Source: a virus. From it: DNA of 41,421 nt. Positions 7,250-27,565 of this stretch are shown here, piece by piece. Position numbers and translations under genes: made by a program. The stretch lies in the IMG/VR virus record IMGVR_UViG_3300043932_000066; one strand, 5' to 3'. The notes under the pieces were generated by a model. That model made no database searches. It saw only the letters and a list, made by a program, of their open reading frames with translations, and was not told where the DNA came from. The number at the start of each line of letters is the position of its first letter. Positions within the stretch are counted from its first letter, which is position 1.

Positions 7250-7641
7250 TACTCTTCCTCCATGTCGGCGGCGAGCCGGTTGGCCCTTTCGCGGAGTCGG
7301 TTGATCTGGTCGCGCTTGCGAGCGTTCCTGCGTCGCGCGTTCGCCACGGTGACGGGATGCCAGTCGACGTCGGTCTCGACGAGGATCGCGGCGCCGCCCC
7401 ACCGGTTGATGAGGTCGACCCTGTGCTGAGCGCTGGAGCGGGACCGGTAGATGGGCCGGTCGGATGGGATGAAGAACGGGTGGGGCTCGCCCCACACCTG
7501 CTGGCAGTGCTCGTCCCAGCCCTTCGGCGCGCCCTCAGCCTCGGTCTTCGGGGCCGCGGGGACGGTCTCCGTCCAGTCCTCCAGGACCTCGACGTTGGCG
7601 TCCGGGAAGTCGGCGACGTCCATGGCCTTGTAGAGCCTCAT
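7249..7641 (-). CDS. Hypothetical protein (130 aa)
   Basis: MRLYKAMDVADFPDANVEVLEDWTETVPAAPKTE.... GAAGGAGATCGCAGC precedes the ATG. ATGA overlap with the antirepressor stop. Confidence 0.7.
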   Translation of the reverse strand: MRLYKAMDVADFPDANVEVLEDWTETVPAAPKTEAEGAPKGWDEHCQQVWGEPHPFFIPSDRPIYRSRSSAQHRVDLINRWGGAAILVETDVDWHPVTVANARRRNARKRDQINRLRERANRLAADMEEE

Positions 7642-8450
7642 GCTGCGATCTCCTTCGTGAGGGTGAGGGTCCCGTGTTCGAGGGCGTAGGCGGTGAGCCC
7701 GTCCCACAGGCGGGCCTCGCCCTTGGGTGTGAGGCGGGGCGTGACCTTGCGGACGGTCCCGTGGTGGGCGGTGTCGATGAGGGTCTCGGCGACGGTCGCC
7801 CACCCGGCTTCCACGGCTTGGCTGGTGGGCTGGTTGTGGCGGATGGTGTTGCCGCGGATGAGGATCCCGAGGCGTCCGGCGTGGTCCCAGACGTCGTCGT
7901 GCTTGACGGGCATGCCGGGGAAGCGGCTTGCGGCGTAGGCCTTGAAGCGGTTCGCGACGTCGCCGATGAGCTGGAGGCCTTCGCTGGAGCGGTAGAAGTC
8001 GCGCTCGGCGGCCGGCCCCTCCAGTGCGAGGGCCCGGGCTTCGGCGGCCTGCGCTCGGTTGAGCGCGGCCTTCCCCGCGTCGAGGATCGCGGAGATCCCG
8101 TCCAGGGTCGTGATGTCCATCGACGGGGCGCCGTAGCTGCCGGTCCGGCGGATGCTGGGGAGGACGTCGGTCGTCAGCCATCGGCGGAAGGGCTTCGCCT
8201 TCGGGCTGTCGCTGCGGATGATGACCTCGTACATGCCCGGCTCGTTGACGACGTTCATGGAGCGGGTCTGCCCTCCGGACCTGATGTCCGCCTGACGGAC
8301 GTCAGCTTCTTCGAGTCGGGCGGCGACGTTGCGGGTGTTGGTGATGTCGAGGACGGCGCACAGGTCGTTGAGCACGGCCCACGGCTCACCCTCTATGTCG
8401 AGCACCCGAACTGCGGTACCCTCGTAGGTGAAGGGGATCAGGTCTTGCAT
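7638..8450 (-). CDS. Prophage antirepressor (Bro-N domain + KilAC domain)
   Basis: Bro-N-like: LIPFTYEGTAVRVLDIEGEPWAVLNDLCAVLDI...KPFRRWLTTDVLPSIRRTG. The C-terminal half is KilAC-like. An alternative ATG lies at 8465. Confidence 0.85.
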   Translation of the reverse strand: MQDLIPFTYEGTAVRVLDIEGEPWAVLNDLCAVLDITNTRNVAARLEEADVRQADIRSGGQTRSMNVVNEPGMYEVIIRSDSPKAKPFRRWLTTDVLPSIRRTGSYGAPSMDITTLDGISAILDAGKAALNRAQAAEARALALEGPAAERDFYRSSEGLQLIGDVANRFKAYAASRFPGMPVKHDDVWDHAGRLGILIRGNTIRHNQPTSQAVEAGWATVAETLIDTAHHGTVRKVTPRLTPKGEARLWDGLTAYALEHGTLTLTKEIAA

Positions 8451-8517
8451 AATGCTTCCTTTCATCGCTCCCGTCGGCTGGTCCCGGCGGGAGTCTCTTG
8501 TTGGGTAGGGTTCGGGC

Positions 8518-9075
8518 ATGGACTGGACTGTTGTGGCATCGTGGGCCGGTGCCGTCGTCTCGCTGCTCTCGCTCGCCGCGACACTGTGGTTGCAGTGGTG
8601 GCGGCGCCCCACTGTCGACTGGATCTGCGACGGGTGGATGAACAAGCGGGGCGCCATCGGGAGCAGAGTCCGCGAGGGTGGGTTCCCCGTGTACCTGACG
8701 CTGGCCAACTGCGGGGACGGCGCCGCCTTCGGTGTGGAGACGCTGCGATGCCACGGGGGAGCGAAGGAGCCGTACCGCGTTTTCGAGGCTGGCGTGGTAC
8801 CGGCGGGCGGGCAGATCGAGGTGCGGCTCATGGTTGAACTCGCTGATCTGGAGTCCGCGTGGGTAGAGGTGGACTACACATCCAGCCCGACTCTTCGCTC
8901 CACACGCAGACACTCACGCCGCTTTTACCCGGCAGTAGAACTCGCTGACCATGCTCGACGGAGGCCCGGCTACGATCCGACACAGGTCGGTCCCCAGTGG
9001 GGAGAAACGTCTCGGATCCCGGGTCCCATCGCCACGCGGCAAGAGGACGATCACGGTCCTGGCGACGCTCAGTGA
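8518..9075 (+). CDS. Plus-strand membrane-anchored protein (185 aa), candidate lysogen-expressed moron
   Basis: N-terminal TM segment WTVVASWAGAVVSLLSLAATLWLQWW. GC3 is about 88% over 8518-8820 by my count and falls where it overlaps the convergent gene. Confidence 0.6.
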   Translation: MDWTVVASWAGAVVSLLSLAATLWLQWWRRPTVDWICDGWMNKRGAIGSRVREGGFPVYLTLANCGDGAAFGVETLRCHGGAKEPYRVFEAGVVPAGGQIEVRLMVELADLESAWVEVDYTSSPTLRSTRRHSRRFYPAVELADHARRRPGYDPTQVGPQWGETSRIPGPIATRQEDDHGPGDAQ

Positions 9076-9190: not shown

Positions 9191-9372
9191 CACGACTCCT
9201 TCGGTTCGAGGAGGTCACGCAGGCGGATGCTCCTGTTGTGTCGGTTGCGGCGCGACTTCTTGTTGTCCGCGTCGCTGAGGACGCGGATCGAGGCGGCGCG
9301 GTCAGGAACGGTCCGGAGGATGTCGGACACTCCGGCGAGCGGGCGGCGCGACGAGTGGAAGATGTCGACCAT
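9190..9372 (-). CDS. Hypothetical basic protein (60 aa)
   Basis: MVDIFHSSRRPLAGVSDILRTVPDRAASIRVLSDADNKKSRRNRHNRSIRLRDLLEPKES. High GC3. TGATG/GTGA junction with the Cro-like gene. Confidence 0.6.
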   Translation of the reverse strand: MVDIFHSSRRPLAGVSDILRTVPDRAASIRVLSDADNKKSRRNRHNRSIRLRDLLEPKES

Positions 9373-9611
9373 CACGCCGCCACCGTCTCGAAGAACTCGG
9401 TGGGGAGGAGCGCGCCCGGGGTGATGCCGAGGGCGCGAGCAATCTTGCGGAGGTCCTCCACGTTGAAGGGGCGGTCGCCGTGGATCTTGTTCTGGAGGGT
9501 CGTGTACGGGATCCCGCTCTTCCGCGACACGCTGGTCTGACTCTCGCCTGCGGCGAGGATGGCCTGCGCCACCGCCTGGGCGGTTCGCTCGGTGAGATTG
9601 TCTCTTGCCAT
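9372..9611 (-). CDS. Cro-like XRE-family HTH regulator (first gene of the early leftward operon)
   Basis: SQTSVSRKSGIPYTTLQNKIHGDRPFNVEDLRKIARALGI is an XRE HTH. Divergent from the ImmR-like gene. An alternative start at 9632 lies inside a palindrome. Confidence 0.7.
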   Translation of the reverse strand: MARDNLTERTAQAVAQAILAAGESQTSVSRKSGIPYTTLQNKIHGDRPFNVEDLRKIARALGITPGALLPTEFFETVAA

Positions 9612-9624
9612 GCGGCCAGAGTAC

Positions 9625-9696
9625 CTATCCATACGGATAGAGTCAAGCGGGGGTGTCGACCTATTTGGATCGACACTCTATCCAAAATGGTGGTAG
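9625..9696. promoter_or_regulatory. Divergent switch region with three operator-like dyads
   Basis: CTATCCatacGGATAG (9625-9640). GTGTCGA-n10-TCGACAC (9653-9676) enclosing CTATttGGAT. CTATCCaaaatggtGGTAG (9678-9696). The region looks AT-richer than its surroundings. Confidence 0.5.
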
Positions 9697-9706
9697 TGTC
9701 ATCCGC

Positions 9707-10033
9707 ATGGATGAAGAGATGGAGCAGGACGCGGCCGCGTACAACGCCGCCGTCGGCGCGCAGATACGCGCGGAAGCTGCGAAGAAACGAATCTCCCTGG
9801 TGCAGCTCGCCAAGCTCTCCGGCGTTGGAGAGGCCAGCGTGAATCGCTACGTCGCGGGCAATCGGGCGATCCCAATCCCAGCCCTCTACGCGATCGCTGC
9901 CGCACTGGGTGTGCCGCCCGACGTGATCCTGGACCGTGCCGCCGAAGACATGGAGACCCCCGAGTGGATGCTGGCGGCGCACCATAATCCGGATCGTCGT
10001 CGTGAGGCGGAGGGTCGGGAGGACTCCATCTGA
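9707..10033 (+). CDS. ImmR/CI-like XRE-family repressor
   Basis: RISLVQLAKLSGVGEASVNRYVAGNRAIPIPALYAIAAALGV is an HTH_XRE. Co-oriented with the ImmA-like protease, with a 1-nt overlap. Confidence 0.75.
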   Translation: MDEEMEQDAAAYNAAVGAQIRAEAAKKRISLVQLAKLSGVGEASVNRYVAGNRAIPIPALYAIAAALGVPPDVILDRAAEDMETPEWMLAAHHNPDRRREAEGREDSI

Positions 10034-10458
10034 TGGTGGGGGTGCGCACAATGGGGTGCATGATCCCGACGATGGATGATCTGCTGGAGGAATGCGACGG
10101 GCTGTCCGTCCGCGTGAAGTGGGCACCCCTGCCTCCCGAGATGGACGGCGCGTTCCTCCTCCCGCGCCGCACCATCATCCTCAGCGACGACCTGGCCGAC
10201 TACCAGCAGCGGCCCGCGCTCGCCCACGAGATCGAGCACGCCAGGCGCGGCGATGACGGGCCACAGCCGCCACGAGTCGAGCAGCACATCGACGAGATCG
10301 TCGCCTGCCGCTTCGTCGACTTCATGGCCTACGCGCGGTCAGAAACCGAGCGCGGATGGAACACCCCCGCGATCGCGCGGGACCTCGACCTCCCGCGCTG
10401 GGTTATCCAGGCCTACCGCCGCGCCCTAGAGAAAGCGGTCCGCAAGGTCAGCGCGTAA
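10033..10458 (+). CDS. ImmA/IrrE-family zinc metallopeptidase (anti-repressor protease)
   Basis: HEXXH motif within ALAHEIEHARRGDD. About 140 aa. Immediately downstream of the XRE repressor, which is the classic ImmR-ImmA arrangement. Confidence 0.8.
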   Translation: MVGVRTMGCMIPTMDDLLEECDGLSVRVKWAPLPPEMDGAFLLPRRTIILSDDLADYQQRPALAHEIEHARRGDDGPQPPRVEQHIDEIVACRFVDFMAYARSETERGWNTPAIARDLDLPRWVIQAYRRALEKAVRKVSA

Positions 10459-10478: not shown

Positions 10479-11696
10479 TCACGCTTCGATCTGGGGGAGC
10501 GCCTGAGACAAGGCAAGCGTCATGGCGGCGGCGATGGCCTCCCCTCGGCCTGGGAGGAGATCGGCGTACAGGTCGCTCGTCGTCTGGATGGACTCATGCC
10601 CGAGCTGGTACTGCACGTCCTGCAATGTCGCGCCCGCGCTGATCATCCACGAGGCCGCGGTGTGGCGACAGTCATGGATGCGCGGCCACTTCCCCAACGT
10701 CGCGCCTCGCTGGGCCGGGCGGATCCCGTCCCACATTGACCCCGAGGCGGGGTGGTGGTCGCGGCCCTTGTCTGGCCAGCCTGGCTTCCCGTTTGCCAGT
10801 CGGAGGGCGGGGGCCCACACGTCCGGGTAGAACGTCGAGTGCTTGATCCGCCCCCCGCGCGGCGTCGTGAACAGCAGCTCCTGAGGATCCCGAGCCTTCT
10901 GGTCGCCGCAGTAAGGGCATAGCTGGGCGGGCGTCACGATCGTGCGGCGCCCGCGTCGAGTCTTCGGCGGCCCGACCTCCCACCCGCCAGGCACCTTCTT
11001 CCACGCCTTCGACACGCGCAGGGTCCCAGCACTCTCGTCGTAGTCGGCGACCGTGAGGGCCGTCGCCTCAGAGAATCGCATGCCCGTGCCAAGCAGCGCG
11101 GTGACGAACGAGCGATACGGGGGCGGAATACAGCCGAGAAGGATCGCCGCCTCGCTCTGCGTCAGGCTCACGCGCTCCTCGCGGACATCGTCCTTGCGGA
11201 GGTGCCGGCCTGTCTCCTCGCAGGGGTTGCGAGCGAGCCCCGTCTCCGGATCCCGGGCCGCATGGTCGAGGACTGACGAGAGGAAGCCGTGCTTGTTCCG
11301 GATGGTCTTCGCGCTCGCTCCTTGCCTCTCCAGGCCGCGGACCCACGCTTGGACGCGCGCCTCGGTGATCATGTCCACGGGGATTCGTCCGAGCGAGCGG
11401 AGGTCGGTGCGGATGATCGCGTGGTAGCGGTGGCGTGTGCCCTCTGTGATGCCGGTGCGCCGGTCGACGTCGGCCGTCGCGTAGTCGACGAGCAGCGGAG
11501 ATTTCGGGCTGCCGTCTTCGTTGGCGGCGAGGATCTCTAGGGCAGCTTCGAGGCCGAGCTGATCTACGGAGCGTAGCCAGTCGTCGCGGCCCTTGGCGGT
11601 GGGGAAGGTGGCGGATCGCTGGCGTCCGTGGTCGCGGTAGAGGGCTTGCCAGGCGATTGTGCCGTCAGCACGGACGCGCTCTCTTTTTGACGCCAT
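10479..11696 (-). CDS. int: Tyrosine integrase
   Basis: C-terminal HDCRHTAASWMISAGATLQDVQYQLGHESIQTTSDLYADL (HxxR...H...Y). Likely ATG at 11696 after GGGAGG. The ORF track extends it to 11729. Confidence 0.9.
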   Translation of the reverse strand: MASKRERVRADGTIAWQALYRDHGRQRSATFPTAKGRDDWLRSVDQLGLEAALEILAANEDGSPKSPLLVDYATADVDRRTGITEGTRHRYHAIIRTDLRSLGRIPVDMITEARVQAWVRGLERQGASAKTIRNKHGFLSSVLDHAARDPETGLARNPCEETGRHLRKDDVREERVSLTQSEAAILLGCIPPPYRSFVTALLGTGMRFSEATALTVADYDESAGTLRVSKAWKKVPGGWEVGPPKTRRGRRTIVTPAQLCPYCGDQKARDPQELLFTTPRGGRIKHSTFYPDVWAPALRLANGKPGWPDKGRDHHPASGSMWDGIRPAQRGATLGKWPRIHDCRHTAASWMISAGATLQDVQYQLGHESIQTTSDLYADLLPGRGEAIAAAMTLALSQALPQIEA

Positions 11697-11713
11697 TCCG
11701 ACCGACCTCCCGT

Positions 11714-11768
11714 GTTGACATGTCAACAATTAGACCCCGTCTAGACACTTGTCAACGCCTCTCAACGC
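11714..11768. repeat. attP left arm: clustered (G/C)TCAAC(A/G)C motifs (candidate arm-type integrase sites)
   Basis: Palindrome TTGACATGTCAA (11715-11726). GTCAACGC (11751-11758). CTCAACGC (11761-11768). An inverted GTTGAC lies at 11816-11821. Confidence 0.45.
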
Positions 11769-12593: not shown

Positions 12594-12935
12594 ATGATCA
12601 CCAAGAGGACCGGCAGGTACAGCGAGACCGACACCCGCGACTCCTTCATCTACGAGATCGCCGACGAGGACGGGATCGCCGCCGACCTCTACATCGACAC
12701 CGACTCCCACCTCATCATGAACATCGAGGTCCGCGCCGACCGACAGGGCGAGGGCCTGGCCCGCAGCCTCTACGAGCACGCCAAGCAGGACCTCGGCGAC
12801 ATCTACCACATCCCCGCATGGGGCTGCACCGAGGACGGCATCGGATTCGCCCACGCCATGGGCGGCGACATCATGGACGACGATCAGGCCGCAGCCATCG
12901 TCGGCATGGACCTCAGCATCTACGACATGGACTGA
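12594..12935 (+). CDS. Acidic 113-aa protein, possible mini-GNAT (YjdJ-like) fold
   Basis: IMNIEVRADRQGEGLARSLYEHAKQ resembles GNAT motif A (R/Q-x-x-G-x-G/A). The family assignment is tentative. Confidence 0.6.
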   Translation: MITKRTGRYSETDTRDSFIYEIADEDGIAADLYIDTDSHLIMNIEVRADRQGEGLARSLYEHAKQDLGDIYHIPAWGCTEDGIGFAHAMGGDIMDDDQAAAIVGMDLSIYDMD

Positions 12936-12947
12936 CAGGAGCACATC

Positions 12948-13313
12948 ATGCAGATCACCGACGAGACCCGCACCTACCTCGACGGTCACGGCACCGAGGA
13001 GCAGCAGGGGCTTTTCCAGCGGGCGGCGGAGCGCATCCGTGAGATCTACCGGGAGCAGGAGTCCGACGCCCCGGAGGACGAGGCGGGCATGACGGCCGAG
13101 CAGCTGGTCGGGGCCGCCCAGTACGCGCTCGGAGATGGCGCGCTGGAGGATCTGGGCGAGGAGGCGCGGGCTGCCCAGATGAGGTACCTGGCGGCACTGG
13201 ACCGCCTGGCGGGTGCGATGGTCGCCGCCGACCTCCAGGGCGTGCCGATCGTCCAGATCGCTGAGCGCGCCCACGTCACCCGGCCCACCGTCTACAAGAG
13301 GCTGGGGAGGTGA
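12948..13313 (+). CDS. Protein with a C-terminal HTH (121 aa)
   Basis: The C-terminus VPIVQIAERAHVTRPTVYKRLGR is a resolvase/Hin-type HTH. The N-terminal part is acidic. Confidence 0.65.
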   Translation: MQITDETRTYLDGHGTEEQQGLFQRAAERIREIYREQESDAPEDEAGMTAEQLVGAAQYALGDGALEDLGEEARAAQMRYLAALDRLAGAMVAADLQGVPIVQIAERAHVTRPTVYKRLGR

Positions 13314-14020
13314 CCACGTGGGACGCGGCGCGATGCGCCCGGGAGATCGGGGTGCTGGCCGCGACATGGAGCACCTACGCCTCCCGAGGTCTGGTGCCCG
13401 CCTCGGTGGCGCGCGGACTGTGGGACGCGGACGAGGTCCGGGCATGGGCATACCCCCGCATCCCGGAGCCGGACCCCACCACTCCTGATAGCACCTACGG
13501 GGCCCGCGATGGTCATGGCCGGTACGGGATCCTCGACCAGGCTGAGGACGGTCGCCTCATCTGCCACGAGTGCGGCAGAGGTGTGTGGCACCTCGCCAGC
13601 CACCTCCACACCAGCCACCAGATCGACACCCACACCTACCGACAGTCACACGGCCTGCCCCTCACGGCGCCGCTCGTCTCCACTCCCGTGCGGGGGCGCA
13701 TGGGTGAGTCATGGAGTGGGCACGCCTCCCAGCATCTCGCGCGCCTGGCCGCCACCCGAGACCCCCAGCGCGCCACGCAGGCCAGCCATGGCGTGCAGCG
13801 CTCAGCAGCCACGCGCCACACCATGCAGCACCCCAGGGGCCGCGCGCTCACCGACGCGGAGGCCCGCCTCCTGGACGCAGCACCCGACCTGGACACCTGG
13901 GCACGCATCGCCCGTGGCCTCCTCGACGATGGGGCGAGTGGCGCCACCATCAGCGCGGCCACCGGGATCCGCGAGGGCACAGTGCACGCCAGAGTCGCCC
14001 GCCTCGCACCCCGCACATGA
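13310..14020 (+). CDS. Multi-domain regulator with a Ros/MucR-type zinc finger
   Basis: LICHECGRGVWHLASHLHTSHQIDTHTYRQSHGLPLTAPLVS aligns by eye to Ros [42 protein letters not shown]. N-terminal excisionase-like HTH and C-terminal HTH (TISAATGIREGTVHARVARL). Confidence 0.7.
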   Translation: MTTWDAARCAREIGVLAATWSTYASRGLVPASVARGLWDADEVRAWAYPRIPEPDPTTPDSTYGARDGHGRYGILDQAEDGRLICHECGRGVWHLASHLHTSHQIDTHTYRQSHGLPLTAPLVSTPVRGRMGESWSGHASQHLARLAATRDPQRATQASHGVQRSAATRHTMQHPRGRALTDAEARLLDAAPDLDTWARIARGLLDDGASGATISAATGIREGTVHARVARLAPRT

Positions 14021-18721: not shown

Positions 18722-19804
18722 TCACCAGTTGAGTTCCTGCACGTCCACGCGCATCCGCGACGACGGATCTGAGAGCGACACGCTGTAGGCGGTGATGCGG
18801 CCCACGATCGTCTCGTCATCGGTGACGGCGGCGATCACGTCCCCCACCTCCAGGCGCGGGTCCATCGCGATCTCCAGGCTGCGGGTCCGAGTCGTGAGGG
18901 CGAGATTGCGCAGGCGGGTCTGCATCGCGGCTGTCACCGCAGTCTGCCCGTCCGCGCTGTTCAGCTCGAAACGGCTCGCGACCAGCCCGTATTCGCTGAT
19001 GCTGTAGGGCGGTTCGGTCGCATCCCCTTGAGCCACCCACTGCGTCTCCACGTCGCCCTCAGTCTTGCTGCCGACGACGACGATCCGGTTCGCCCGACGC
19101 TCCACCGCCTGCCGAGGGGCCGATAGGAGCAGGTCCCTCGCCGTGTAGGTCGCCACCGGAGCCCGCCCATCCCGCTGAGCCCACACGTGCAGGTACCCGT
19201 CCGGCTTCACGCCGTACTCCAGCCCGTAGGACTCGCATAGGTCGCGCACCGCCTCAGCCCGATCCGTCCCCCACTCGAACGTCCTGGGAATCCCCCGATC
19301 CACCGGGTCATCGAGGACCACGGGGAGACTGTGCCCCTCACCGACATTGCACAAGCGGCGCAGCTCAGACAGCAGGGACGCGCCGGCGGGAGGCGAGCTC
19401 GGCCACGTCATCGGCGCCTCCACCAGGGTTTGCATGAGATCCAGGGCCGTCACCTGCACCGTGTCGCCATCCCCAGGCTCCCACGTGTCGATCTGGAACC
19501 ATCCCAGCTCCACCTCGCTGGGCGTCCCGTCCACATCGAGGAGCGCAGTCGCGTGCGCTCTCTGCCCGAAATTGCTCAGCGGCGAGAGCGGGTGATCCAC
19601 TGCGCGCACCGTGCCCCCCGCAGAATCCGTCCACTCCATGGGCGCCGTGAACTCGAGTTTCCCCGGCACGACGCGGTCGGCAGTCACGTCCAGCACCACG
19701 TCGCGCACCGGCACGTCCACGGCCAAAACCTGCCGTCCGCGCGTGACCTCCACGCGCGCACCCACAGCCACAGAGCCGCGCAGATCAGCAGGACCCGGAC
19801 GCAT
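18722..19804 (-). CDS. Minor tail / baseplate hub-like protein (360 aa)
   Basis: GAGGTGATCGC precedes the ATG at 19804. Assigned by position between the distal tail protein and the fibre. Normal composition. Confidence 0.7.
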   Translation of the reverse strand: MRPGPADLRGSVAVGARVEVTRGRQVLAVDVPVRDVVLDVTADRVVPGKLEFTAPMEWTDSAGGTVRAVDHPLSPLSNFGQRAHATALLDVDGTPSEVELGWFQIDTWEPGDGDTVQVTALDLMQTLVEAPMTWPSSPPAGASLLSELRRLCNVGEGHSLPVVLDDPVDRGIPRTFEWGTDRAEAVRDLCESYGLEYGVKPDGYLHVWAQRDGRAPVATYTARDLLLSAPRQAVERRANRIVVVGSKTEGDVETQWVAQGDATEPPYSISEYGLVASRFELNSADGQTAVTAAMQTRLRNLALTTRTRSLEIAMDPRLEVGDVIAAVTDDETIVGRITAYSVSLSDPSSRMRVDVQELNW

Positions 19805-19857
19805 GCGATCACCTCAAATCGTCAGATGTGGGATGGCTGTTGGCGTAGGTTGAGGCC

Positions 19858-20364
19858 ATGCCAGAGGGAAGACCCGCAATCCCGCGCGCGCTCGCCCGCG
19901 CAGTCAAAGAAGAAGCCGGACACCGATGCGCGATTCCCACGTGCAAAGCAACATCGGCCCTTGAAATCGCCCACATCAGACCGTGGGCAGAGGTTCACGA
20001 ACACACCTTCGACAACCTCATCTACCTGTGCGCCATCTGCCATACCAGATACGACCGTGGAGAGATCGATCGGCAATCCATGCTTGCGTACAAGCAAAAT
20101 CTCAGCGTCCTCAACAGTCGCTACAGCGACTTCGAGCGACGCATCCTCCAGACCCTCCAAGGCAGAGGTCCCGGGAGCGCGATCCCGCTGCAGAGCGTTG
20201 ATCCGATGCTCTTCCTGTATCTCGTCGAAGATGGGCTGCTCGTAGAAGTCTTCTCCCAGGGTGGACAGCTTCTCATCAACGGGATCAACCCCACGCGCCA
20301 TTGGACACTGACAGAGCAGGGATGGGACTTCGTCAACCGCTGGTTCTCGGGTCAGACCCTGTGA
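19858..20364 (+). CDS. HNH-nuclease domain protein with a C-terminal winged-helix-like domain (reverse-oriented moron)
   Basis: HRCAIPTC...LEIAHIRPW...FDNLIYLCAICHTRYDRGEI is a beta-beta-alpha-Me/HNH pattern. 4 AGA codons and lower GC3 than its neighbours. Confidence 0.75.
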   Translation: MPEGRPAIPRALARAVKEEAGHRCAIPTCKATSALEIAHIRPWAEVHEHTFDNLIYLCAICHTRYDRGEIDRQSMLAYKQNLSVLNSRYSDFERRILQTLQGRGPGSAIPLQSVDPMLFLYLVEDGLLVEVFSQGGQLLINGINPTRHWTLTEQGWDFVNRWFSGQTL

Positions 20365-20509
20365 AGCGGAGCTCGTCGCGCACGAGAGAGGCCGCAGAGT
20401 CATAGACCCCAGCCACTGATCCCACCCAGCCCGGGGGTGTCGCGCGGGACTCGTCCACCAACAGCTCGATGACTTCTCGCAGGGTCTCCTGCCGAACGTC
20501 CGCGTTCAT
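20333..20509 (-). CDS. Small ORF (58 aa) coupled to the distal tail protein gene
   Basis: ATGA overlap at 20506-20509. Reads MNADVRQETLREVIELLVDESRATPPGWVGSVAGVYDSAASLVRDELRF. Its 3' end overlaps the HNH gene by 32 bp. Confidence 0.4.
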   Translation of the reverse strand: MNADVRQETLREVIELLVDESRATPPGWVGSVAGVYDSAASLVRDELRFTGSDPRTSG

Positions 20510-21189
20510 GACGGCATCCCAGCCACGATGCGGCACAGGTCCAGCATCGAGTAGTCCTGCCAGCCCTCGCCGAGGGCCTGATACTCGCCCCACGTCACCA
20601 CAGGGCACGCGCCAGACCGCGACACGGCAGACCGCGACTCAGTCCACGACACGTCGAACAACAGCTCGCCCCGCCGACCGATCCGCGACCTCGACACGCT
20701 GTCCACCGTCACGCAGCGCAGGGACACGCCAGGCGTCGACTGGTCCGGCGCAATGATGATCGGCGCGTGAGAGCGCAGGACCCGCCACACGTCAGCCTCC
20801 CGCGCCGGATCAGTGAGCACGACCTGCCCGACACCACTCACCAGGGGATCGCTCAGTGACCAGCGCTCGACACGATCATTGAACCGGCTGACCGAGCTTG
20901 ACCAAGCGAGCTTGTCCCCGTTGTTCGCGTAGATCAGGCCTGGAATCCCGCGCCCCCGAGCATTCGTGAGGAACGCCTGCCCCAGCCCGCCAGCCGCCCG
21001 CACCAGCGTGATCAACTCGGAGCCGACCCGGTACTCGGTCGCCACGCCGGGCTCAGCCAGCGCATCCGACAGGAGCACCGGAGCAGTCCCATCAGCCAGC
21101 ACACGGCCACCCACGCTCACACGCACAGGATCCGAACTGTAAATACTCGGCAATCCCGTATGCGACGCCACCCAACCGACCACCGACAT
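20506..21189 (-). CDS. Distal tail protein (Dit-like) / minor tail protein
   Basis: 227 aa immediately downstream of the TMP (TGATG junction). Called by position; no motif recognised. Confidence 0.65.
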   Translation of the reverse strand: MSVVGWVASHTGLPSIYSSDPVRVSVGGRVLADGTAPVLLSDALAEPGVATEYRVGSELITLVRAAGGLGQAFLTNARGRGIPGLIYANNGDKLAWSSSVSRFNDRVERWSLSDPLVSGVGQVVLTDPAREADVWRVLRSHAPIIIAPDQSTPGVSLRCVTVDSVSRSRIGRRGELLFDVSWTESRSAVSRSGACPVVTWGEYQALGEGWQDYSMLDLCRIVAGMPS

Positions 21190-24080
21190 CAGTACCGCCC
21201 CCTAATCACGCGCACAGCCTGATCGCGGACAGTCGCCCGCACCTGATCACCCGTCCACGGATTCTCGACATACACCGCCGGCAGTGTGGATGCGGCGTTC
21301 CCCGACGGCACGTACGGGCTCACAGACGCCGCCGGGATCACGCTCCCCGACAACTCTGCCTGGAGGCGCGCGCCCATCGACCCGACGTCGCCCATGACGT
21401 TCTGGAACTCACGCTCCAGGCCCGTCCCGAGGCCCTGCATGATCCACCCGCCATTCGGGATGAGCAGCCGCAGGTCGTACGCCTTCGGGCCCTTGTGCTC
21501 CTGAATCCACGAGGCGATCCCGCCGACCCACGACTTGACCGCCTCAAACGCGCTCTTCATGCCATTCCACAGGCCGCTGATGATCGACGACCCGGCATTC
21601 CACAGGAGCGACCCGACGCTGCCCAGTGCCGACACCATTCGCCCAGGCAACTCACCCATCTTGGACGCCACCTGCGGGAATGCTTGCGCCAGGCCGGTCA
21701 CCAGTTGGCCGATCGCGCTCAGCCCAGCCTGCACGAGGGCGGGGAAATTGTCGCCGAGGACCTGCACGATCGTCGCGATGATCTGCGGGACCATGACGAT
21801 CAACTGGGGCAGGGCGTCGACAAGCCCGGTGATCAGCGCAACGAGGAGCTGGATCCCCGCATCGATGATGGCGGGCAGGTTCTGGACGAGAGTGTTCACA
21901 ATCCCCGTGATGATCGTCGGCAGCATCGCGACCAACTGCGGAATCGAGCTCACAATGCCCTGGATCAGGGCCGTCAGGATCTGCACACCCGCCAGCAGGA
22001 TCTGCGGGAGGGCTCCGATCAGGGTCGACACGAGGGTCACGATGATCTGCGGTATCGCCGCGATCAGTTGGGGGAGCGCCGTCACAATGCCCTGGATCAG
22101 GCCCACCAGGAGGTCCATGCCGGACTGGATGATCTGGGGGAGCATCTGGACGAGCCCGAGGACCAGTGTCGTGATGACTTGGACGGCCATCGGAATCAGT
22201 GTCGGGAGGGCCGCGCCGAGCCCAGAGACGAGGGTCGAGAGGATGTCGGCAGCGCCCTGGAGAATGGCCGGAAGGTTCTGGATGATCCCCGTCAGGAGCG
22301 CCATGATCACGTCGACGCCCGTCTGCATGAAGACCGGCATCTGCGACGACAACTGGCCGACGAGATCAGCGATCTTGCCCGGCAGTTCAGCCATGGTCGC
22401 GCTGAACTGGGCGAGCATCTCCCCGCCGCCCTGACTCATGAGAGCGCCGAGACCAGCGACCACTGCCGCCACGAGAGCCCCGAGCCCGAAGAACTTCATG
22501 AAGTTGCCCGGCTTGAAAAACTTGCCGATCAGGTCCCCGACCTTGCCGAGGCCCGACTGAAGAGGACCGGACACGCCATCGAAGAGCCCGCCGAACACGT
22601 TCCCAATCCCGGATTTCACGGGTGAGAGAGCCCCGGTGATCTTCTCGCCAACCGCAGAGATCCGCGACGTGACGGGCGACGCGAAGTCCCCGACCTTCGA
22701 CGCAGCAGACCTCAGCGCGTCACCCACGGACGACATGCCGCTCCCGGCCTTGACCTTCGCGGCCTCGAAATTGCTGGAGATCGCTGACGTGAACGGCGCC
22801 ATCCACCCCGAAACCTTGGTGCCGATCGACTTGAACGGCGCTCCGAGCTGAGACAGCCCAGTCTGGACGCGCTGGACCGCCGCACCGAACGGGTCACCGT
22901 CCATCGTGGCGGCCTCAGCGAGATCCCGGTGGAACAGCATGTCGACGCCGTTGATGAATGCCCCGCCCTTCGACGAGACAGCCCCGGCGGCTGATGACAA
23001 TGAGTCTCCAACCTTACCAGGAAGCTTGTTGAAGACCTCAAGAACCGAGGAGACGTCATCCCAGTTCTTCAGTGCCGCACCAGCCGCACCAGCCGCAGCA
23101 ACGCCACCTGCGACGGTGACGAGTGAACGCCCGAACACGTCAAGATCACCGACGTTCTGAGCCCGGTTGATCGTGTTCGAAATCTTGTCGCCAAGCGTCA
23201 CAATGCCGCTCGACGCCTCGTTGATCTTCGAGGCGATATCCTCCGCGCCGACAGCCTGGATGACCGCGCTCATGGCCTTCGACGTGCGGTTCCGGACGTT
23301 GTCGAGAGCCGTCTGGATGCCCTTGGTGGCGTCTTGAGCCTGCTGGGAGAACGACGCGAACCCGTTGACGCCTTCCTTGTCGAGCTGGAGCATCGCGTCG
23401 TTGAAGTCCTGGAAAGAGACCTTCCCGTCCATCATTGCGCTGTAAAGGTCGTTGCTGTTCGCGGTCGTCCCGAGGAGCGCGTGCGCCATTTGGTCGAGCT
23501 GGCCGGGCATGACCTCCTGCATGGTCCGCCAGGCCATCATGTCCGGCTTGCCCTTGCTGAGCATCTGCGTGTACTGGAGCATTGCGCGCGACTGGTCCGC
23601 CGTGGACTTGCCGGACGCCAGGAGCATGTCGTTGAACGCGAGGCCGACGTTGGTCGCCTCGTCCATGCCGGACGTGATCGGCGCGAGCTGCTGCACCATG
23701 CTCACGACGCCGTCAAGAGACGAGGGGAGCCCGTCGAGCCGGTCGCTGATCTTCTTCACTGAGGCTTCGGCGTCATCGGCCGAGTAGCCCAGGTTCTGCA
23801 TGATCTTCGGGAAGTTGTTGAGTATGTCTGTTCTGGACACGGCCCGCCCAAGGTTCGCGACCGCCGCAGCGCCGACAGCTGCGAAAGCCGCTACGCCCGT
23901 CTTCGCGACAGCCGAGAATGCTGACCCGATGCCGCTCGTGATCTTCGAGCCCATGCCCCTCGTCGCCGGGGAGATGTCCACCCCGCCCAGGGCCTTGTTG
24001 ATGGCCGGTGCGACGCCGTTCATCGCGGGGACGACGTTCAGCCAGGCGTTGCCGATGGGGATGCCGCCAGCAGTGCCCAT
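21189..24080 (-). CDS. Tape measure protein
   Basis: 963 aa. Long hydrophobic periodic repeats (ALPQLIAAIPQIIVTLVSTLIGALPQILLAGVQILTALIQGIV...). GGAGGctgatc precedes the ATG at 24080. Confidence 0.9.
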   Translation of the reverse strand: MGTAGGIPIGNAWLNVVPAMNGVAPAINKALGGVDISPATRGMGSKITSGIGSAFSAVAKTGVAAFAAVGAAAVANLGRAVSRTDILNNFPKIMQNLGYSADDAEASVKKISDRLDGLPSSLDGVVSMVQQLAPITSGMDEATNVGLAFNDMLLASGKSTADQSRAMLQYTQMLSKGKPDMMAWRTMQEVMPGQLDQMAHALLGTTANSNDLYSAMMDGKVSFQDFNDAMLQLDKEGVNGFASFSQQAQDATKGIQTALDNVRNRTSKAMSAVIQAVGAEDIASKINEASSGIVTLGDKISNTINRAQNVGDLDVFGRSLVTVAGGVAAAGAAGAALKNWDDVSSVLEVFNKLPGKVGDSLSSAAGAVSSKGGAFINGVDMLFHRDLAEAATMDGDPFGAAVQRVQTGLSQLGAPFKSIGTKVSGWMAPFTSAISSNFEAAKVKAGSGMSSVGDALRSAASKVGDFASPVTSRISAVGEKITGALSPVKSGIGNVFGGLFDGVSGPLQSGLGKVGDLIGKFFKPGNFMKFFGLGALVAAVVAGLGALMSQGGGEMLAQFSATMAELPGKIADLVGQLSSQMPVFMQTGVDVIMALLTGIIQNLPAILQGAADILSTLVSGLGAALPTLIPMAVQVITTLVLGLVQMLPQIIQSGMDLLVGLIQGIVTALPQLIAAIPQIIVTLVSTLIGALPQILLAGVQILTALIQGIVSSIPQLVAMLPTIITGIVNTLVQNLPAIIDAGIQLLVALITGLVDALPQLIVMVPQIIATIVQVLGDNFPALVQAGLSAIGQLVTGLAQAFPQVASKMGELPGRMVSALGSVGSLLWNAGSSIISGLWNGMKSAFEAVKSWVGGIASWIQEHKGPKAYDLRLLIPNGGWIMQGLGTGLEREFQNVMGDVGSMGARLQAELSGSVIPAASVSPYVPSGNAASTLPAVYVENPWTGDQVRATVRDQAVRVIRGRY

Positions 24081-24103
24081 GATCAGCCTCCGATCGCTCC
24101 AGA

Positions 24104-24757
24104 ATGGCCGCGCTGGGCCGTAGAATTGGGCGCATGGCCCATCGACTCACTGCCGCGCTGGCGGCCGCCCTGCTCGCCGTCGGACTCTCCGCGTGTGGGG
24201 GAGGAGGCGATCAGTCGGCCGATGTGGCCGCGGTCCCAGACGTCGTCGGCATGACTGCCTCTGACGCCCAGACCGAGCTTCTGAGCGCCGGATACACGGC
24301 GACCGTCACCGACGAGGACGGGAAGATCAGCGTCGACTCGACGCTGACTGTGCTCAGCCAGGACCCGGCCGCCGGCGCTGAGGTGAAGCCGTACAGTGGC
24401 ACGCCCGTGAAGCTCACCGTCCCCACGACCGACAAACCCACTCCGACGCCGGCCGCGACCGAGACGGCGGAGCCTGCGCCGTCTCGGACCGAGCAGGCGA
24501 CGACCGGAGGACTCACGGAGACCTATGCCATGACCGCCTGCGACCAGTACGGGGAGCAGCAGTTCCCCTACGGGTACGACGCGCACTGGGTCCTCGGAGT
24601 GCTCGCCAGCGAATACCAGCCGGACACGGACGAGTGGTACTTCAAGGTCGAGGCCGACGTCACCAACGAGTACAACGCCGAGCAGACCGTCAACGTGGAG
24701 TGCTACGTGACCGGCACCGAAGATGCGCCCGTCGTGAACGACTTCCTCGCCTACTGA
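24104..24757 (+). CDS. Secreted lipoprotein with a PASTA domain (reverse-oriented moron)
   Basis: Signal peptide plus lipobox ...LLAVGLSAC. PASTA-like VPDVVGMTASDAQTELLSAGYTATV...SQDPAAGAEVKPYSGTPVKLTV. An alternative ATG lies at 24134. High GC3. Confidence 0.75.
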   Translation: MAALGRRIGRMAHRLTAALAAALLAVGLSACGGGGDQSADVAAVPDVVGMTASDAQTELLSAGYTATVTDEDGKISVDSTLTVLSQDPAAGAEVKPYSGTPVKLTVPTTDKPTPTPAATETAEPAPSRTEQATTGGLTETYAMTACDQYGEQQFPYGYDAHWVLGVLASEYQPDTDEWYFKVEADVTNEYNAEQTVNVECYVTGTEDAPVVNDFLAY

Positions 24758-25472
24758 TCGGCTGGGACGCGGGGGAGCGCCAGGCGGCGGCGGACCTCAT
24801 CCACCGGCATTGAGACGACTTCGGACTTCGCGCCGTACCCGGTGATGCCGGGGCGCGGGATCGGTTTGGGCCGCGGGGACGCGCTCCTCCGGCCCCTGTT
24901 CCCGCGTTGCCAGTTCGCCACGTTCAGGGCATCCACCTCGGCCGCCAGGAGCTGGTTCACGATCATGCCCCACTGCCAGTCCGGGACGAGCCTCCGGTGC
25001 GTCCACGACTCTGGCTGGCGGATCATCGCCGCACACCATGCGGCCGCCAGGCTCATCGGCACGTCGTGGACGTCCGGCACGCCGTAGAACCGCTGGAAGT
25101 CCGCACTCAGCTCGTCGGGCGCCTCACGCATGCACCCGACGAGCGTGATCAGTTTGGGGAGTCCTCCGACAGGGCCTCCATCGCCTGTTCGAGGTAGCTG
25201 CCCATCTTCTCGGCGGACACGATCCCGTTGTCCCCGCGAGCCTTCGCGCGGAACCGATCGTAGGACGCGCCGAAGAGCCGGCGCATCACGCGGATCGCGG
25301 CCGCCGTGTTCCCGTCCTGCGCCTCGGCCATGTCCACACCGAGATCCCAGTCGTCATCGATGTCGGTCGGGAACACGATCTTGATGCCGTCGATCGTCAC
25401 GCCCTTCTCGGCGCCGGCCTTCGGCTTGTGGTCCTGTGGAATCTTCCTCGGCGTCACGCTCTTTGTGGCCAT
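24751..25472 (-). CDS. Tail assembly chaperone G-T fusion made by a -1 programmed frameshift at 25152-25158
   Basis: The T frame (ORF 24751..25131) stays open upstream through the end of the G ORF and lies in the -1 frame relative to G. Confidence 0.7.
25110..25158 (-). promoter_or_regulatory. -1 frameshift signal: slippery heptamer C CCA AAC plus a 13-bp stem-loop 7 nt downstream
   Basis: Minus strand: tcC CCA AAC tga (25158-25152), spacer tgatcac, then stem gctcgtcgggtgc / gcgcccgacgagc (25144-25110) with a 9-nt loop. Confidence 0.7.
25149..25472 (-). CDS. Tail assembly chaperone (gpG analogue)
   Basis: 107 aa, acidic. Between the major tail protein and TMP genes. Ends 3 nt after the slippery heptamer. 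Confidence 0.8.
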   Translation of the reverse strand: MATKSVTPRKIPQDHKPKAGAEKGVTIDGIKIVFPTDIDDDWDLGVDMAEAQDGNTAAAIRVMRRLFGASYDRFRAKARGDNGIVSAEKMGSYLEQAMEALSEDSPN

Positions 25473-26798: not shown

Positions 26799-27164
26799 TC
26801 AGCCCTCCGTGTTCTTCAGGTAGCAGGGCCGGTTCCACGCGCCCGGCGTGTTCGCCGCCGTGTACGGCTGAGGGTCGCCCACGACCTCGTACGTCGTGCC
26901 GCGCACCTCGACGCGCTTCCCACGCAGCGATGCCGTGTAGGTCTTCGGCCAGTGCAAGGCGAGCACGACCTCGACACCCTCAGGCCGTGTGGACCCGTCC
27001 AGGTCGTCCGTGGACGACGGGCCGACAAGAACGTTGCCCACCGTCTGCTCAGGCGCCCACGCGTAGATCGGCGTGTTCATGTCGTCGCGCCCTACCTCCG
27101 CGTACGCGAGGACCGTCACCGTCTCACCCGAGATGACCGAGGGGAACGCGCCGAGATCCATCAC
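26799..27164 (-). CDS. Head closure / head-tail adaptor protein
   Basis: 121 aa, ending ...GKRVEVRGTTYEVVGDPQPY, which is typical of head-tail joining proteins. Synteny agrees. Confidence 0.6.
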   Translation of the reverse strand: MMDLGAFPSVISGETVTVLAYAEVGRDDMNTPIYAWAPEQTVGNVLVGPSSTDDLDGSTRPEGVEVVLALHWPKTYTASLRGKRVEVRGTTYEVVGDPQPYTAANTPGAWNRPCYLKNTEG

Positions 27165-27565
27165 GCCCCCCGATTCGCGAGCAGGTCAACCTCGAACGCG
27201 CGCTGCCCAGGGATGCCGAGCCGCTTCCTATGAACCTTCGTGAAGGACAAGGACCCGACCGCGCTCGCGTACTTCAGGGTCGCCTGATATGGCCCGGCGC
27301 CCTGCTGCACGCTCTCCACGCCGACATCCGGCCCCGCCTGCGCGTAGGCCACCATGTCGCACACGACGTCCGCCACGAGGTCCGCGTCGACGCGGCCACT
27401 GGCGATCCACTCGTCAATGTCCACGCCCGCGTTCTTGCATTCGGCGCGCACGATCCTCGACGCCCGCGCCAGCAAGGAAGGCAGACCATCGAACGCAGGG
27501 CCGAACCCGCCCTCCGTGTAGTGCGTCGGGTCAGCCAACGGCTCCAGGACGTCAGCCATGGTCAC
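27161..27565 (-). CDS. Head-tail connector (gp6-like) protein
   Basis: 134 aa. Position after the capsid gene. Overlapping start/stop junctions on both sides. Confidence 0.6.
   Translation of the reverse strand: MTMADVLEPLADPTHYTEGGFGPAFDGLPSLLARASRIVRAECKNAGVDIDEWIASGRVDADLVADVVCDMVAYAQAGPDVGVESVQQGAGPYQATLKYASAVGSLSFTKVHRKRLGIPGQRAFEVDLLANRGA

Follow-up and report, generated by a model that had tools for sequence, protein, structure and literature searches.

To our knowledge, only a small number of proteins have been described by which prophages of Gram-positive hosts exclude other phages, namely Ltp, Sie2009 and several from mycobacteriophages; exclusion proteins determine which phages are usable against lysogens in dairy, skin and gut Actinobacteria. 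Here we analyse a candidate of this kind, a lipoprotein gene on the plus strand (24134..24757) of a 41,421-nt viral DNA, IMG/VR record IMGVR_UViG_3300043932_000066, the whole of which is called the window below. Two described systems come closest to it. In Streptococcus phage TP-J34, an example of the positions of ltp/sie genes, ltp is located between the integrase and repressor genes (PMC3952083), and its product targets the tape measure (PMC3952083, described in PMC11480721); a passage of PMC11480721 describes the Ltp surface as negative. In HK97, the exclusion moron gene 15 sits in the slot between the tail chaperone and tape-measure genes and is absent from relatives, and gp15 is a membrane-associated protein that is expressed from the prophage and blocks genome injection (PMC3594210). 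A moron, in the sense of Juhala et al. 2000 as outlined in the summary in PMC3594210, is extra DNA between genes that are adjacent in relatives, with a promoter and a terminator of its own and a GC content that departs from that of its neighbours.

We read the window gene as a prophage moron in the tail operon whose product, a lysogen-expressed envelope lipoprotein, may cause superinfection exclusion after adsorption, and we assign this reading a probability of roughly 0.45. Two of its parts are well supported, namely that the product is exported, membrane-tethered and wall-binding, and that its family is associated with lysogeny.

Results

Insertion of the moron in the tail operon

The moron is flanked by minus-strand genes of the late operon: tail assembly chaperone G (25149..25472) with chaperone T (24751..25131), the extension produced by −1 frameshifting, on one side, and the 963-aa tape measure (21189..24080), its downstream neighbour in the operon, on the other. 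Both chaperones were assigned by PHROG tail assembly chaperone matches and the tape measure by PHROG tape-measure/tail families, the best at E 2e-74; the sequence at 25152..25158 is CCCAAAC (C_CCA_AAC), a canonical −1 slippery heptamer. As originally predicted, no real gene other than the moron lay on the plus strand from the chaperones to the tape measure; a second gene on this strand (HNH, 19858..20364) is located further down the tail block. The predicted geometry at its ends was also recovered: the TGA stop of the moron and the minus-strand TAG stop of chaperone T formed a 7-bp convergent overlap (24751..24757), and the tape-measure start was separated from the moron by 23 nt (ATG 24104) or 53 nt (ATG 24134).

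To establish the insertion status, we compared the gap from the T stop to the tape-measure start in 56 IMG/VR loci that encode a relative of chaperone T. The insert was lacking in 53 of the 56 loci, and a 683-nt gap holding the gene was confined to three loci of the window's own lineage. Among the other 53 loci, 51 had gaps of −17 to +44 nt and one a gap of 133 nt; L052 and L079, considered as carriers of other morons in the slot, were rejected since their larger gaps corresponded to split tape-measure open reading frames (ORFs). The closest relative with an empty slot, L042 (T 49% identical), had a 44-nt gap that contained only the tape-measure ribosome-binding site. Because 53 of the 56 phages with a related chaperone carry no insert, the gene is, on this comparison, a true moron, an apparently autonomous gene inserted backwards among the late tail genes of a temperate siphophage of Actinobacteria. 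Extra DNA is present, a terminator of its own and deviant GC were not found, and TAGAAT, 7 nt before the ATG, is a promoter candidate that lacks a sigma-70 consensus.

A long ORF alone means little in 66% GC DNA, so that several independent supports were needed to accept the longest plus-strand ORF of the locus (24104..24757, 217 codons). Its positional GC of 0.67/0.51/0.85 was of the coding type, like that of other genes of the phage, it matched PASTA in Pfam and YPYG_dom in NCBIfam, and a search of a 5.8-billion-protein set returned 22 homologues, of which several occupied genomic contexts unrelated to this one. Taken together, these supports indicate that the moron is a real gene, as first proposed, and no high-GC shadow ORF; the overlapping minus-strand ORFs (e.g. 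24083..24586) are shadows themselves. Relative to its counterpart in the nearest relative, the moron protein was 74% identical, compared to 100% for the major capsid protein (MCP), 93% for the major tail protein, 92% for the tape measure, 83% for T and 81% for G. Against this relative the moron is the most diverged gene of the region, which fits fast evolution or block exchange.

The close relatives differed from the window at one further place. In L001 (6141..6740) and L009 (11056..11655), head-tail connector genes flanked an HNH endonuclease gene (199 aa) that was absent from the corresponding place in the window (about 27161..27165), an indel in structural modules that were otherwise near-identical, the MCP being 100% identical to that of L001.

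Architecture of the product

The preferred coding sequence (24134..24757) encodes a 207-aa PASTA-YPYG lipoprotein. Its N-terminus (24134..24196), MAHRLTAALAAALLAVGLSA|C, carries the predicted L-S-A-C lipobox and reads MAHR / LTAALAAALLAVG / LSA|C, a signal peptide of 20 residues followed by the Cys to be lipidated at residue 21 of the 207-aa form (codon 24194-24196). Using as criterion a positive n-region, a hydrophobic h-region and a lipobox [LVI][ASTVI][GAS]C within the first ~35 residues, we found that the N-terminus has the sequence of a bacterial lipoprotein (Lgt/Lsp substrate), lipidation itself being a prediction; the lipobox Cys was kept in many homologues (P0001-5, 7, 8, 10, 13, 15, 16, 20). 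The single PASTA repeat read from the sequence by the original prediction (24233..24421) was recognised by Pfam PF03793 at residues 44-106 of the 217-aa form (E 5.6e-10, 39.5 bits vs a cutoff of 23.2) and was modelled by AlphaFold2 (AF2) as a confident fold with a predicted local distance difference test (pLDDT) score of 80-92. It is followed, again as foreseen, by a flexible linker rich in Thr, Pro, Ala and Glu (24422..24514), with pLDDT <50 at residues 111-128 of the 217-aa form and with variable length and sequence among homologues (alignment A1).

The Cys-containing C-terminal domain reported earlier is present and spans the last 80 aa (24515..24754, residues 128-207 of the 207-aa form), but it can be placed: it matched the NCBIfam model NF052676, YPYG_dom, over all positions 1-79 of 79 (E 5.5e-36, 122.5 bits vs a cutoff of 30). 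In the full-length AF2 model, built on a 21-sequence alignment with 217-aa numbering, a disordered N-terminus including the signal peptide preceded the confident PASTA domain, the disordered linker and a very confident C-terminal domain. Modelled alone, the YPYG domain reached a pLDDT of 95.6 and a predicted template modelling score of 0.83, with one helix packed on a five-stranded antiparallel sheet. The domain is very acidic (net charge −15) and contains a putative C147-C200 disulfide (217-aa numbering). The structural check suggested for this part thus gave a confident fold and no informative relative in the Protein Data Bank (PDB): Foldseek searches of PDB with the full-length and domain-only models had no match below E 1e-3, the best being at E 0.08.

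A leaderless promoter candidate in the divergent spacer

The 53-nt spacer that separates the divergent tape-measure and moron starts (24081..24133) holds the tape-measure ribosome-binding site (CCTCC on the plus strand at 24087-24091) and, 7 nt before ATG 24134, a −10-like hexamer, TAGAAT (plus strand, 24121..24126), which may serve as the promoter of a leaderless mRNA. Leaderless mRNAs of Actinobacteria typically have a TANNNT −10 element a few nt before the A/GTG, as seen in mycobacterial and streptomycete maps of transcription start sites. No Shine-Dalgarno sequence precedes ATG 24134, and the JGI gene call P0001, 100% identical to the moron, begins at this codon. The start at 24134 is therefore more likely than the originally proposed 24104, given the hexamer 7 nt upstream, the JGI call and the textbook signal peptide that results. 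A promoter within the tape-measure coding region, which had been suggested, is not needed, as the −10 box lies in the spacer.

This geometry was rare: only 0.5% of the window's ATG/GTG codons had it, and of the 42 called genes only 1 did. It recurred before the ATG in two other lineages with a gene in the same slot, L014 (TAACCT, 7 nt) and L022 (TAGTGT, 6 nt), as well as at the window's HTH_3 repressor candidate (9707) and cro-like gene (9611). The spacer itself was nearly invariant, with 4 of 53 positions varying (3 substitutions and 1 single-base indel) among relatives in which the moron protein shares 74-76% identity with that of the window. From the rare geometry common to the slot lineages and the repressor and cro-like genes, together with the near-invariant spacer, we infer that the putative moron promoter would be autonomous and of the same class as the immunity-gene promoters. 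A scan found no sigma-70 consensus promoter at the moron.

In the arrangement observed, late transcription must read antisense through the moron, a layout that would favour an active gene in the lysogen and a silent one late in the lytic cycle. Short inverted repeats at the moron were unconvincing. One 9-nt imperfect repeat (CGCTGGGCC / GGCCCATCG, 24111..24119 / 24136..24144) brackets TAGAAT and the moron ATG and could be an operator, a 5′ hairpin or a chance occurrence.

The YPYG family

A YPYG profile search of 1.84 billion representatives returned 791 clusters, counted at the 50% identity level, of which 424 were at E ≤ 1e-10. The domain was always located at the extreme C-terminus of its proteins, and the N-termini of 157 members carried a lipobox (47) or a transmembrane helix (85), most of the others looking truncated. 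PASTA (Pfam) was combined with YPYG in 68 of 150 family representatives, so that the architecture, at first taken to be unfamiliar, is a frequent one; members without PASTA included L014, L022 and G4 gp30. The moron product matches the family architecture of an N-terminal anchor, a variable spacer and a terminal domain ending in Tyr, and the family logic therefore appears to be an anchor, an optional PASTA, a linker and a YPYG effector.

Two mutually exclusive patterns of Cys pairs were present in 102 and 33 of 155 YPYG domains, with few singletons. The covariation of these pairs points to alternative disulfides, which would place the domain outside the cytoplasm. The domains were negatively charged in 93% of members, with a family median of −6. 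Homologues down to ~33% identity kept the ORF intact and shared seven invariant residues of the C-terminal domain (alignment A1), and the terminal Tyr, invariant in this alignment, was nearly so among the 155 domains.

Cultured-phage homologues were found among 50,697 phage records only by a domain-only query at relaxed E; a near-identity DNA search and a full-length tblastn of the same records found nothing. At E ≤ 10, tblastn of the domain retrieved 119 phage records, mostly from phages of C. acnes, and in 116 the match spanned at least 80% of the domain. A literature search for YPYG, or for PASTA with prophage superinfection, found no relevant study.

The profile also matched a set of giant proteins (1,575-6,147 aa; P0023, P0024, P0033, P0044, P0057, P0065, P0068, P0080, P0089 and P0116), which gave high total scores from 10-29 repeated stretches that match only positions ~46-87 of the profile. 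These could be unrelated beta-hairpin repeats or a YPYG-derived repeat.

Genomic positions of YPYG homologues

In the window's lineage (L001/13/41, L009/10, L011/39, L012/40), the YPYG gene was found antisense in the chaperone/tape-measure slot. The same slot and orientation were observed in L014 (57% GC), with a transmembrane anchor and no PASTA, and in L022, with the same protein plan, a 756-aa tape measure and a 4-bp overlap; the 7-bp stop overlap recurred in L001, L009 and L014. Because the chaperones of the window and L014 are homologous, the slot insertions may represent only one or two ancestral events.

Elsewhere, the gene was mostly associated with lysogeny modules. A helix-turn-helix (HTH) gene was followed by ImmA, the YPYG gene and the integrase, all co-oriented, in L006-8 and L017; a KilA-N protein took the HTH position in L018/19, ImmA, the YPYG gene and the integrase followed one another in L026/L038 (Actinomyces ruminis), and in L020 the YPYG gene was directly upstream of the integrase. 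In the P. freudenreichii phages G4, B22 and Doucette, the immunity repressor gp31 is directly followed by the YPYG lipoprotein gp30, which faces the integrase gp29. Other YPYG genes were at prophage ends: in L021/23 the gene followed the integrase and was convergent with a GH25 endolysin, in L016/L035 (Pseudoclavibacter) it was convergent with an amidase endolysin, and in L003 it lay at the host junction, after a tail fibre and an acyltransferase. GmrSD type IV restriction genes were located within ~2 kb of YPYG genes at two unrelated loci, L024 (7628..8866), which also has an integrase nearby, and L033 (10654..12939). Essentially all C. acnes phages carried a distant homologue (gp39-41).

Counted by lineage, repressor/integrase modules accounted for six, lysin or prophage ends for three and the vicinity of GmrSD for two. 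YPYG homologues are thus generally in positions expected to be lysogeny-expressed or moron positions, mostly not beside tape-measure genes, and the idea that homologues always adjoin tape-measure genes does not hold. A recurrent 359-aa acyltransferase beside YPYG genes was considered and rejected, as the 359-aa neighbours were not homologous.

Other features of the window

The phage is temperate, with an integrase (10479..11729) and a repressor/ImmA pair (9707..10458); its further genes include Bro/ANT, a lysis cassette, terminase, portal and DnaB. A probable genetic switch (9372..10458) consists of the HTH_3 repressor candidate (9707..10033, plus strand), an ImmA/IrrE-like metalloprotease (10033..10458, plus strand) and, divergent from the repressor, a cro-like HTH gene (9372..9611, minus strand), with TANNNT 6-7 nt before the ATG of both HTH genes. 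Three co-oriented plus-strand genes (12594..14020) between the integrase/attP region and the lysis cassette, including one with a weak HTH_7 match (12948..13313) and one with a ROS/MucR zinc-finger regulator domain (13310..14020, E 5e-8), may form another lysogen-expressed or moron block. A possible gene, the 185-aa plus-strand ORF 8518..9075, showed leaderless geometry (TAGGGT, 6 nt) and a hydrophobic N-terminus, MDWTVVASWAGAVVSLLSLAATLWLQWW, and had no family match; it partly overlaps the Bro/ANT gene (7638..8831) on the opposite strand.

The HNH endonuclease gene of the tail block (19858..20364, plus strand; Pfam HNH, E 2.9e-8) lies between minus-strand genes 18722..19804 and 20506..21189, has TAGGTT 6 nt before its ATG and resembles a homing-endonuclease-type insertion; the overlapping minus-strand ORF 19822..20403 had no family match and is probably a shadow. 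Rfam families and tRNAs were not found in the window.

Discussion

We propose that the −10 box of the moron (TAGAAT, 24121-24126) would drive a leaderless mRNA beginning at ATG 24134. Expression would take place in the lysogen, as the promoter geometry is the same as that of the phage's repressor gene, and while late transcription is off, so that no collision would occur. The product would be lipidated at Cys21 and tethered on the outer face of the cytoplasmic membrane, and PASTA would dock it on peptidoglycan or lipid II, i.e. at sites of wall synthesis. The YPYG domain, being the constant part of the family, would be the effector, and the protein may interfere with membrane penetration by the tail tip or tape measure, or with DNA entry. 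A block after adsorption fits better than receptor masking because the protein would be tethered at the membrane under a thick wall.

The case for superinfection exclusion is drawn from the positions of the genes, which match those of ltp/sie genes and the HK97 gene 15 slot, and from the two loci that adjoin a defence gene (GmrSD); because the family usually occupies lysogeny modules, the product probably shields the lysogen from further phages. The divergence of the moron relative to its neighbours (74% vs 81-100% in the nearest relative) and the acidic YPYG domain, likened to the negative surface of Ltp, were counted in the same direction.

Several observations weigh against this reading. 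Scans found no intrinsic terminator at the 3′ end of the moron, and the RNA fold downstream of its stop was no better than shuffles (z 0.46); lacking a terminator, the moron transcript may run antisense into G and T. The GC content of the moron (0.676) compared to the window (0.660), the tape measure (0.643) and G-T (0.680) gave no compositional sign of recent import. The fold likeness of the YPYG domain in PDB was generic (cystatin/NTF2/VirB8-like, template modelling score 0.5-0.6), with no informative solved relative, and a profile hidden Markov model search of PDB sequences with the domain returned nothing. Homologues also occurred in ordinary chromosomal contexts in Bifidobacterium and Plantibacter (L005/L037, L032, L036). 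In the C. acnes phages, which carry a distant homologue, the proposal that gp41 is an 'Ltp-like' exclusion protein was based on a BLAST E~1 and quantitative PCR (PMC11480721), and more evidence has been called for (PMC12426086, gp41/gp39).

The original prediction also tied the moron to the tape measure. The adjacency stands, but the link did not extend beyond position: homologues lie elsewhere, and among three close relatives the moron and tape measure did not co-vary, divergence of the moron tracking the G/T block. The most similar moron pair, L001 and L009 (87%; T and G 93-95%), had the least similar tape measures (76%), which likewise counts against superinfection exclusion.

An unlikely alternative is that the moron serves lysogenic conversion, acting on the cell-wall physiology of the host and not directly against phages. 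PASTA would bind muropeptides or lipid II, and a protein of the host envelope, for instance a peptidoglycan hydrolase, a peptidase or a PknB-type sensor, would be bound or inhibited by the cystatin-like YPYG domain, altering wall turnover, stress tolerance or antibiotic tolerance in the lysogen. However, many members lack PASTA (L014, L022, G4 gp30), so that wall sensing cannot be the core function, two YPYG loci adjoin GmrSD, and the family is strongly enriched in lysogeny modules and prophage ends, positions mostly held by immunity or exclusion genes in known phages.

It is less probable still that the moron is an accessory of the lytic cycle which modulates lysis timing or, like T5 Llp, stops progeny or secondary phages from being wasted on the infected cell or its debris. 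The C. acnes phages, which are essentially lytic, transcribe their distant homologue gp41 at a high level when they infect (PMC11480721), an observation that favours this possibility and weighs against superinfection exclusion by a lysogen, and some homologues are convergent to endolysin genes (L021/L023, L016/L035). Yet the moron is antisense within the late operon, where late transcription would collide with its own, its promoter geometry is that of the repressor and cro-like genes and not of late genes, and YPYG genes are co-oriented with repressor/ImmA/integrase in six lineages. That the gene encodes a virion or tail-assembly component, as its position inside the tail gene block might indicate, or is a non-functional remnant kept because the slot tolerates insertions, is very improbable given the signal peptide and lipobox, the opposite orientation, the absence from 53 of 56 related-chaperone phages, the intact ORF with its seven invariant C-terminal residues, the spread of the domain over ~790 clusters and the lack of frequent frameshifts or stops among homologues.

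Superinfection exclusion by the lysogen thus remains our preferred explanation. A broader version of it, which we consider doubtful at present, would make YPYG the effector of a large unrecognised exclusion family of Gram-positive temperate phages (~790 clusters) that blocks tail-tip/tape-measure insertion or DNA entry. PASTA would concentrate the effector at nascent peptidoglycan where genomes enter, and repeated capture in the slot together with the leaderless antisense promoter would make a lysogeny-only switch silenced by late transcription.

A prophage moron that encodes an envelope protein and is a candidate exclusion factor is already known as a kind of element; the YPYG effector domain, its combination with PASTA and the leaderless antisense layout in a tail operon are new, and a leaderless antisense moron inside a tail operon is an unusual regulatory arrangement. 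The locus is a candidate for a widespread exclusion family with cultured members in P. freudenreichii phages G4, B22 and Doucette and in C. acnes phages. Were exclusion true, a function would be assigned to an NCBI-catalogued domain of unknown role, and the HK97 precedent of a moron in the chaperone/tape-measure slot would be extended to Actinobacteria.

Comparison with known systems

The exclusion logic proposed here is likened to that of Ltp and HK97 gp15, with no likeness in sequence. Like HK97 gene 15, the moron is an extra gene in the chaperone/tape-measure slot that is absent from relatives. In contrast, gp15 (YebO-like) is a small single-pass inner-membrane protein of a Gram-negative host, whereas the moron product is a lipoprotein of 207 aa that has two folded domains outside the cytoplasm and is encoded antisense to the late operon with no terminator found. 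A Pfam scan of the moron (E ≤ 1) gave PASTA only and no relation in sequence or domain to gp15/YebO. Tab (PMC10884400) was rejected as an analogue: it is cytoplasmic, encoded between terminase genes and blocks assembly.

Ltp and the moron product are both prophage lipoproteins in which a signal peptide and lipobox are followed by a linker and an acidic effector outside the cytoplasm, and ltp lies between integrase and repressor, as do many YPYG genes. The effectors differ, that of Ltp being two helix-turn-helix repeats and the window's protein combining PASTA with a cystatin-like alpha+beta YPYG domain. Membership of the Ltp family (Pfam Lipoprotein_Ltp) was rejected, with no match at E ≤ 1 and a C-terminal domain made of a helix and a beta-sheet.

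The kinases PknB, PrkC and StkP and class B penicillin-binding proteins share the same Pfam PASTA in an extracytoplasmic, membrane-proximal setting; the moron has a single repeat and no kinase or transpeptidase, and PASTA is optional in the YPYG family. A PADLOC assignment to PD-T4-6 was likewise discarded, as the match (E 1.6e-7) covered only profile positions ~333-433 of 547, the transmembrane/PASTA part, with no kinase domain.

Among phage proteins, C. acnes phage gp41 (Aquarius; gp39-41 elsewhere) was the top Foldseek match in BFVD (E 1.3e-4, root-mean-square deviation 2.8 Å over 91 columns) and matched YPYG_dom at E 4e-6, its 26.8 bits falling short of the NCBIfam cutoff of 30. Its homology is distant and concerns the C-terminal domain; like the moron product, it has an N-terminal membrane anchor and a reported cystatin/VirB8-like fold; it differs in its transmembrane anchor and helical spacer, its lack of PASTA and its place in the early right arm of non-integrating phages. 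The closest cultured-phage homologue is gp30/gp32 of the temperate phages G4, B22 and Doucette, annotated as hypothetical. It differs from the moron in lacking PASTA, in having a Shine-Dalgarno leader and in its location beside repressor and integrase rather than in the tail operon, and it shares with the moron the lipoprotein N-terminus (L-T-A-C), the Thr/Pro linker and a YPYG domain, recognised at 45.6 bits.

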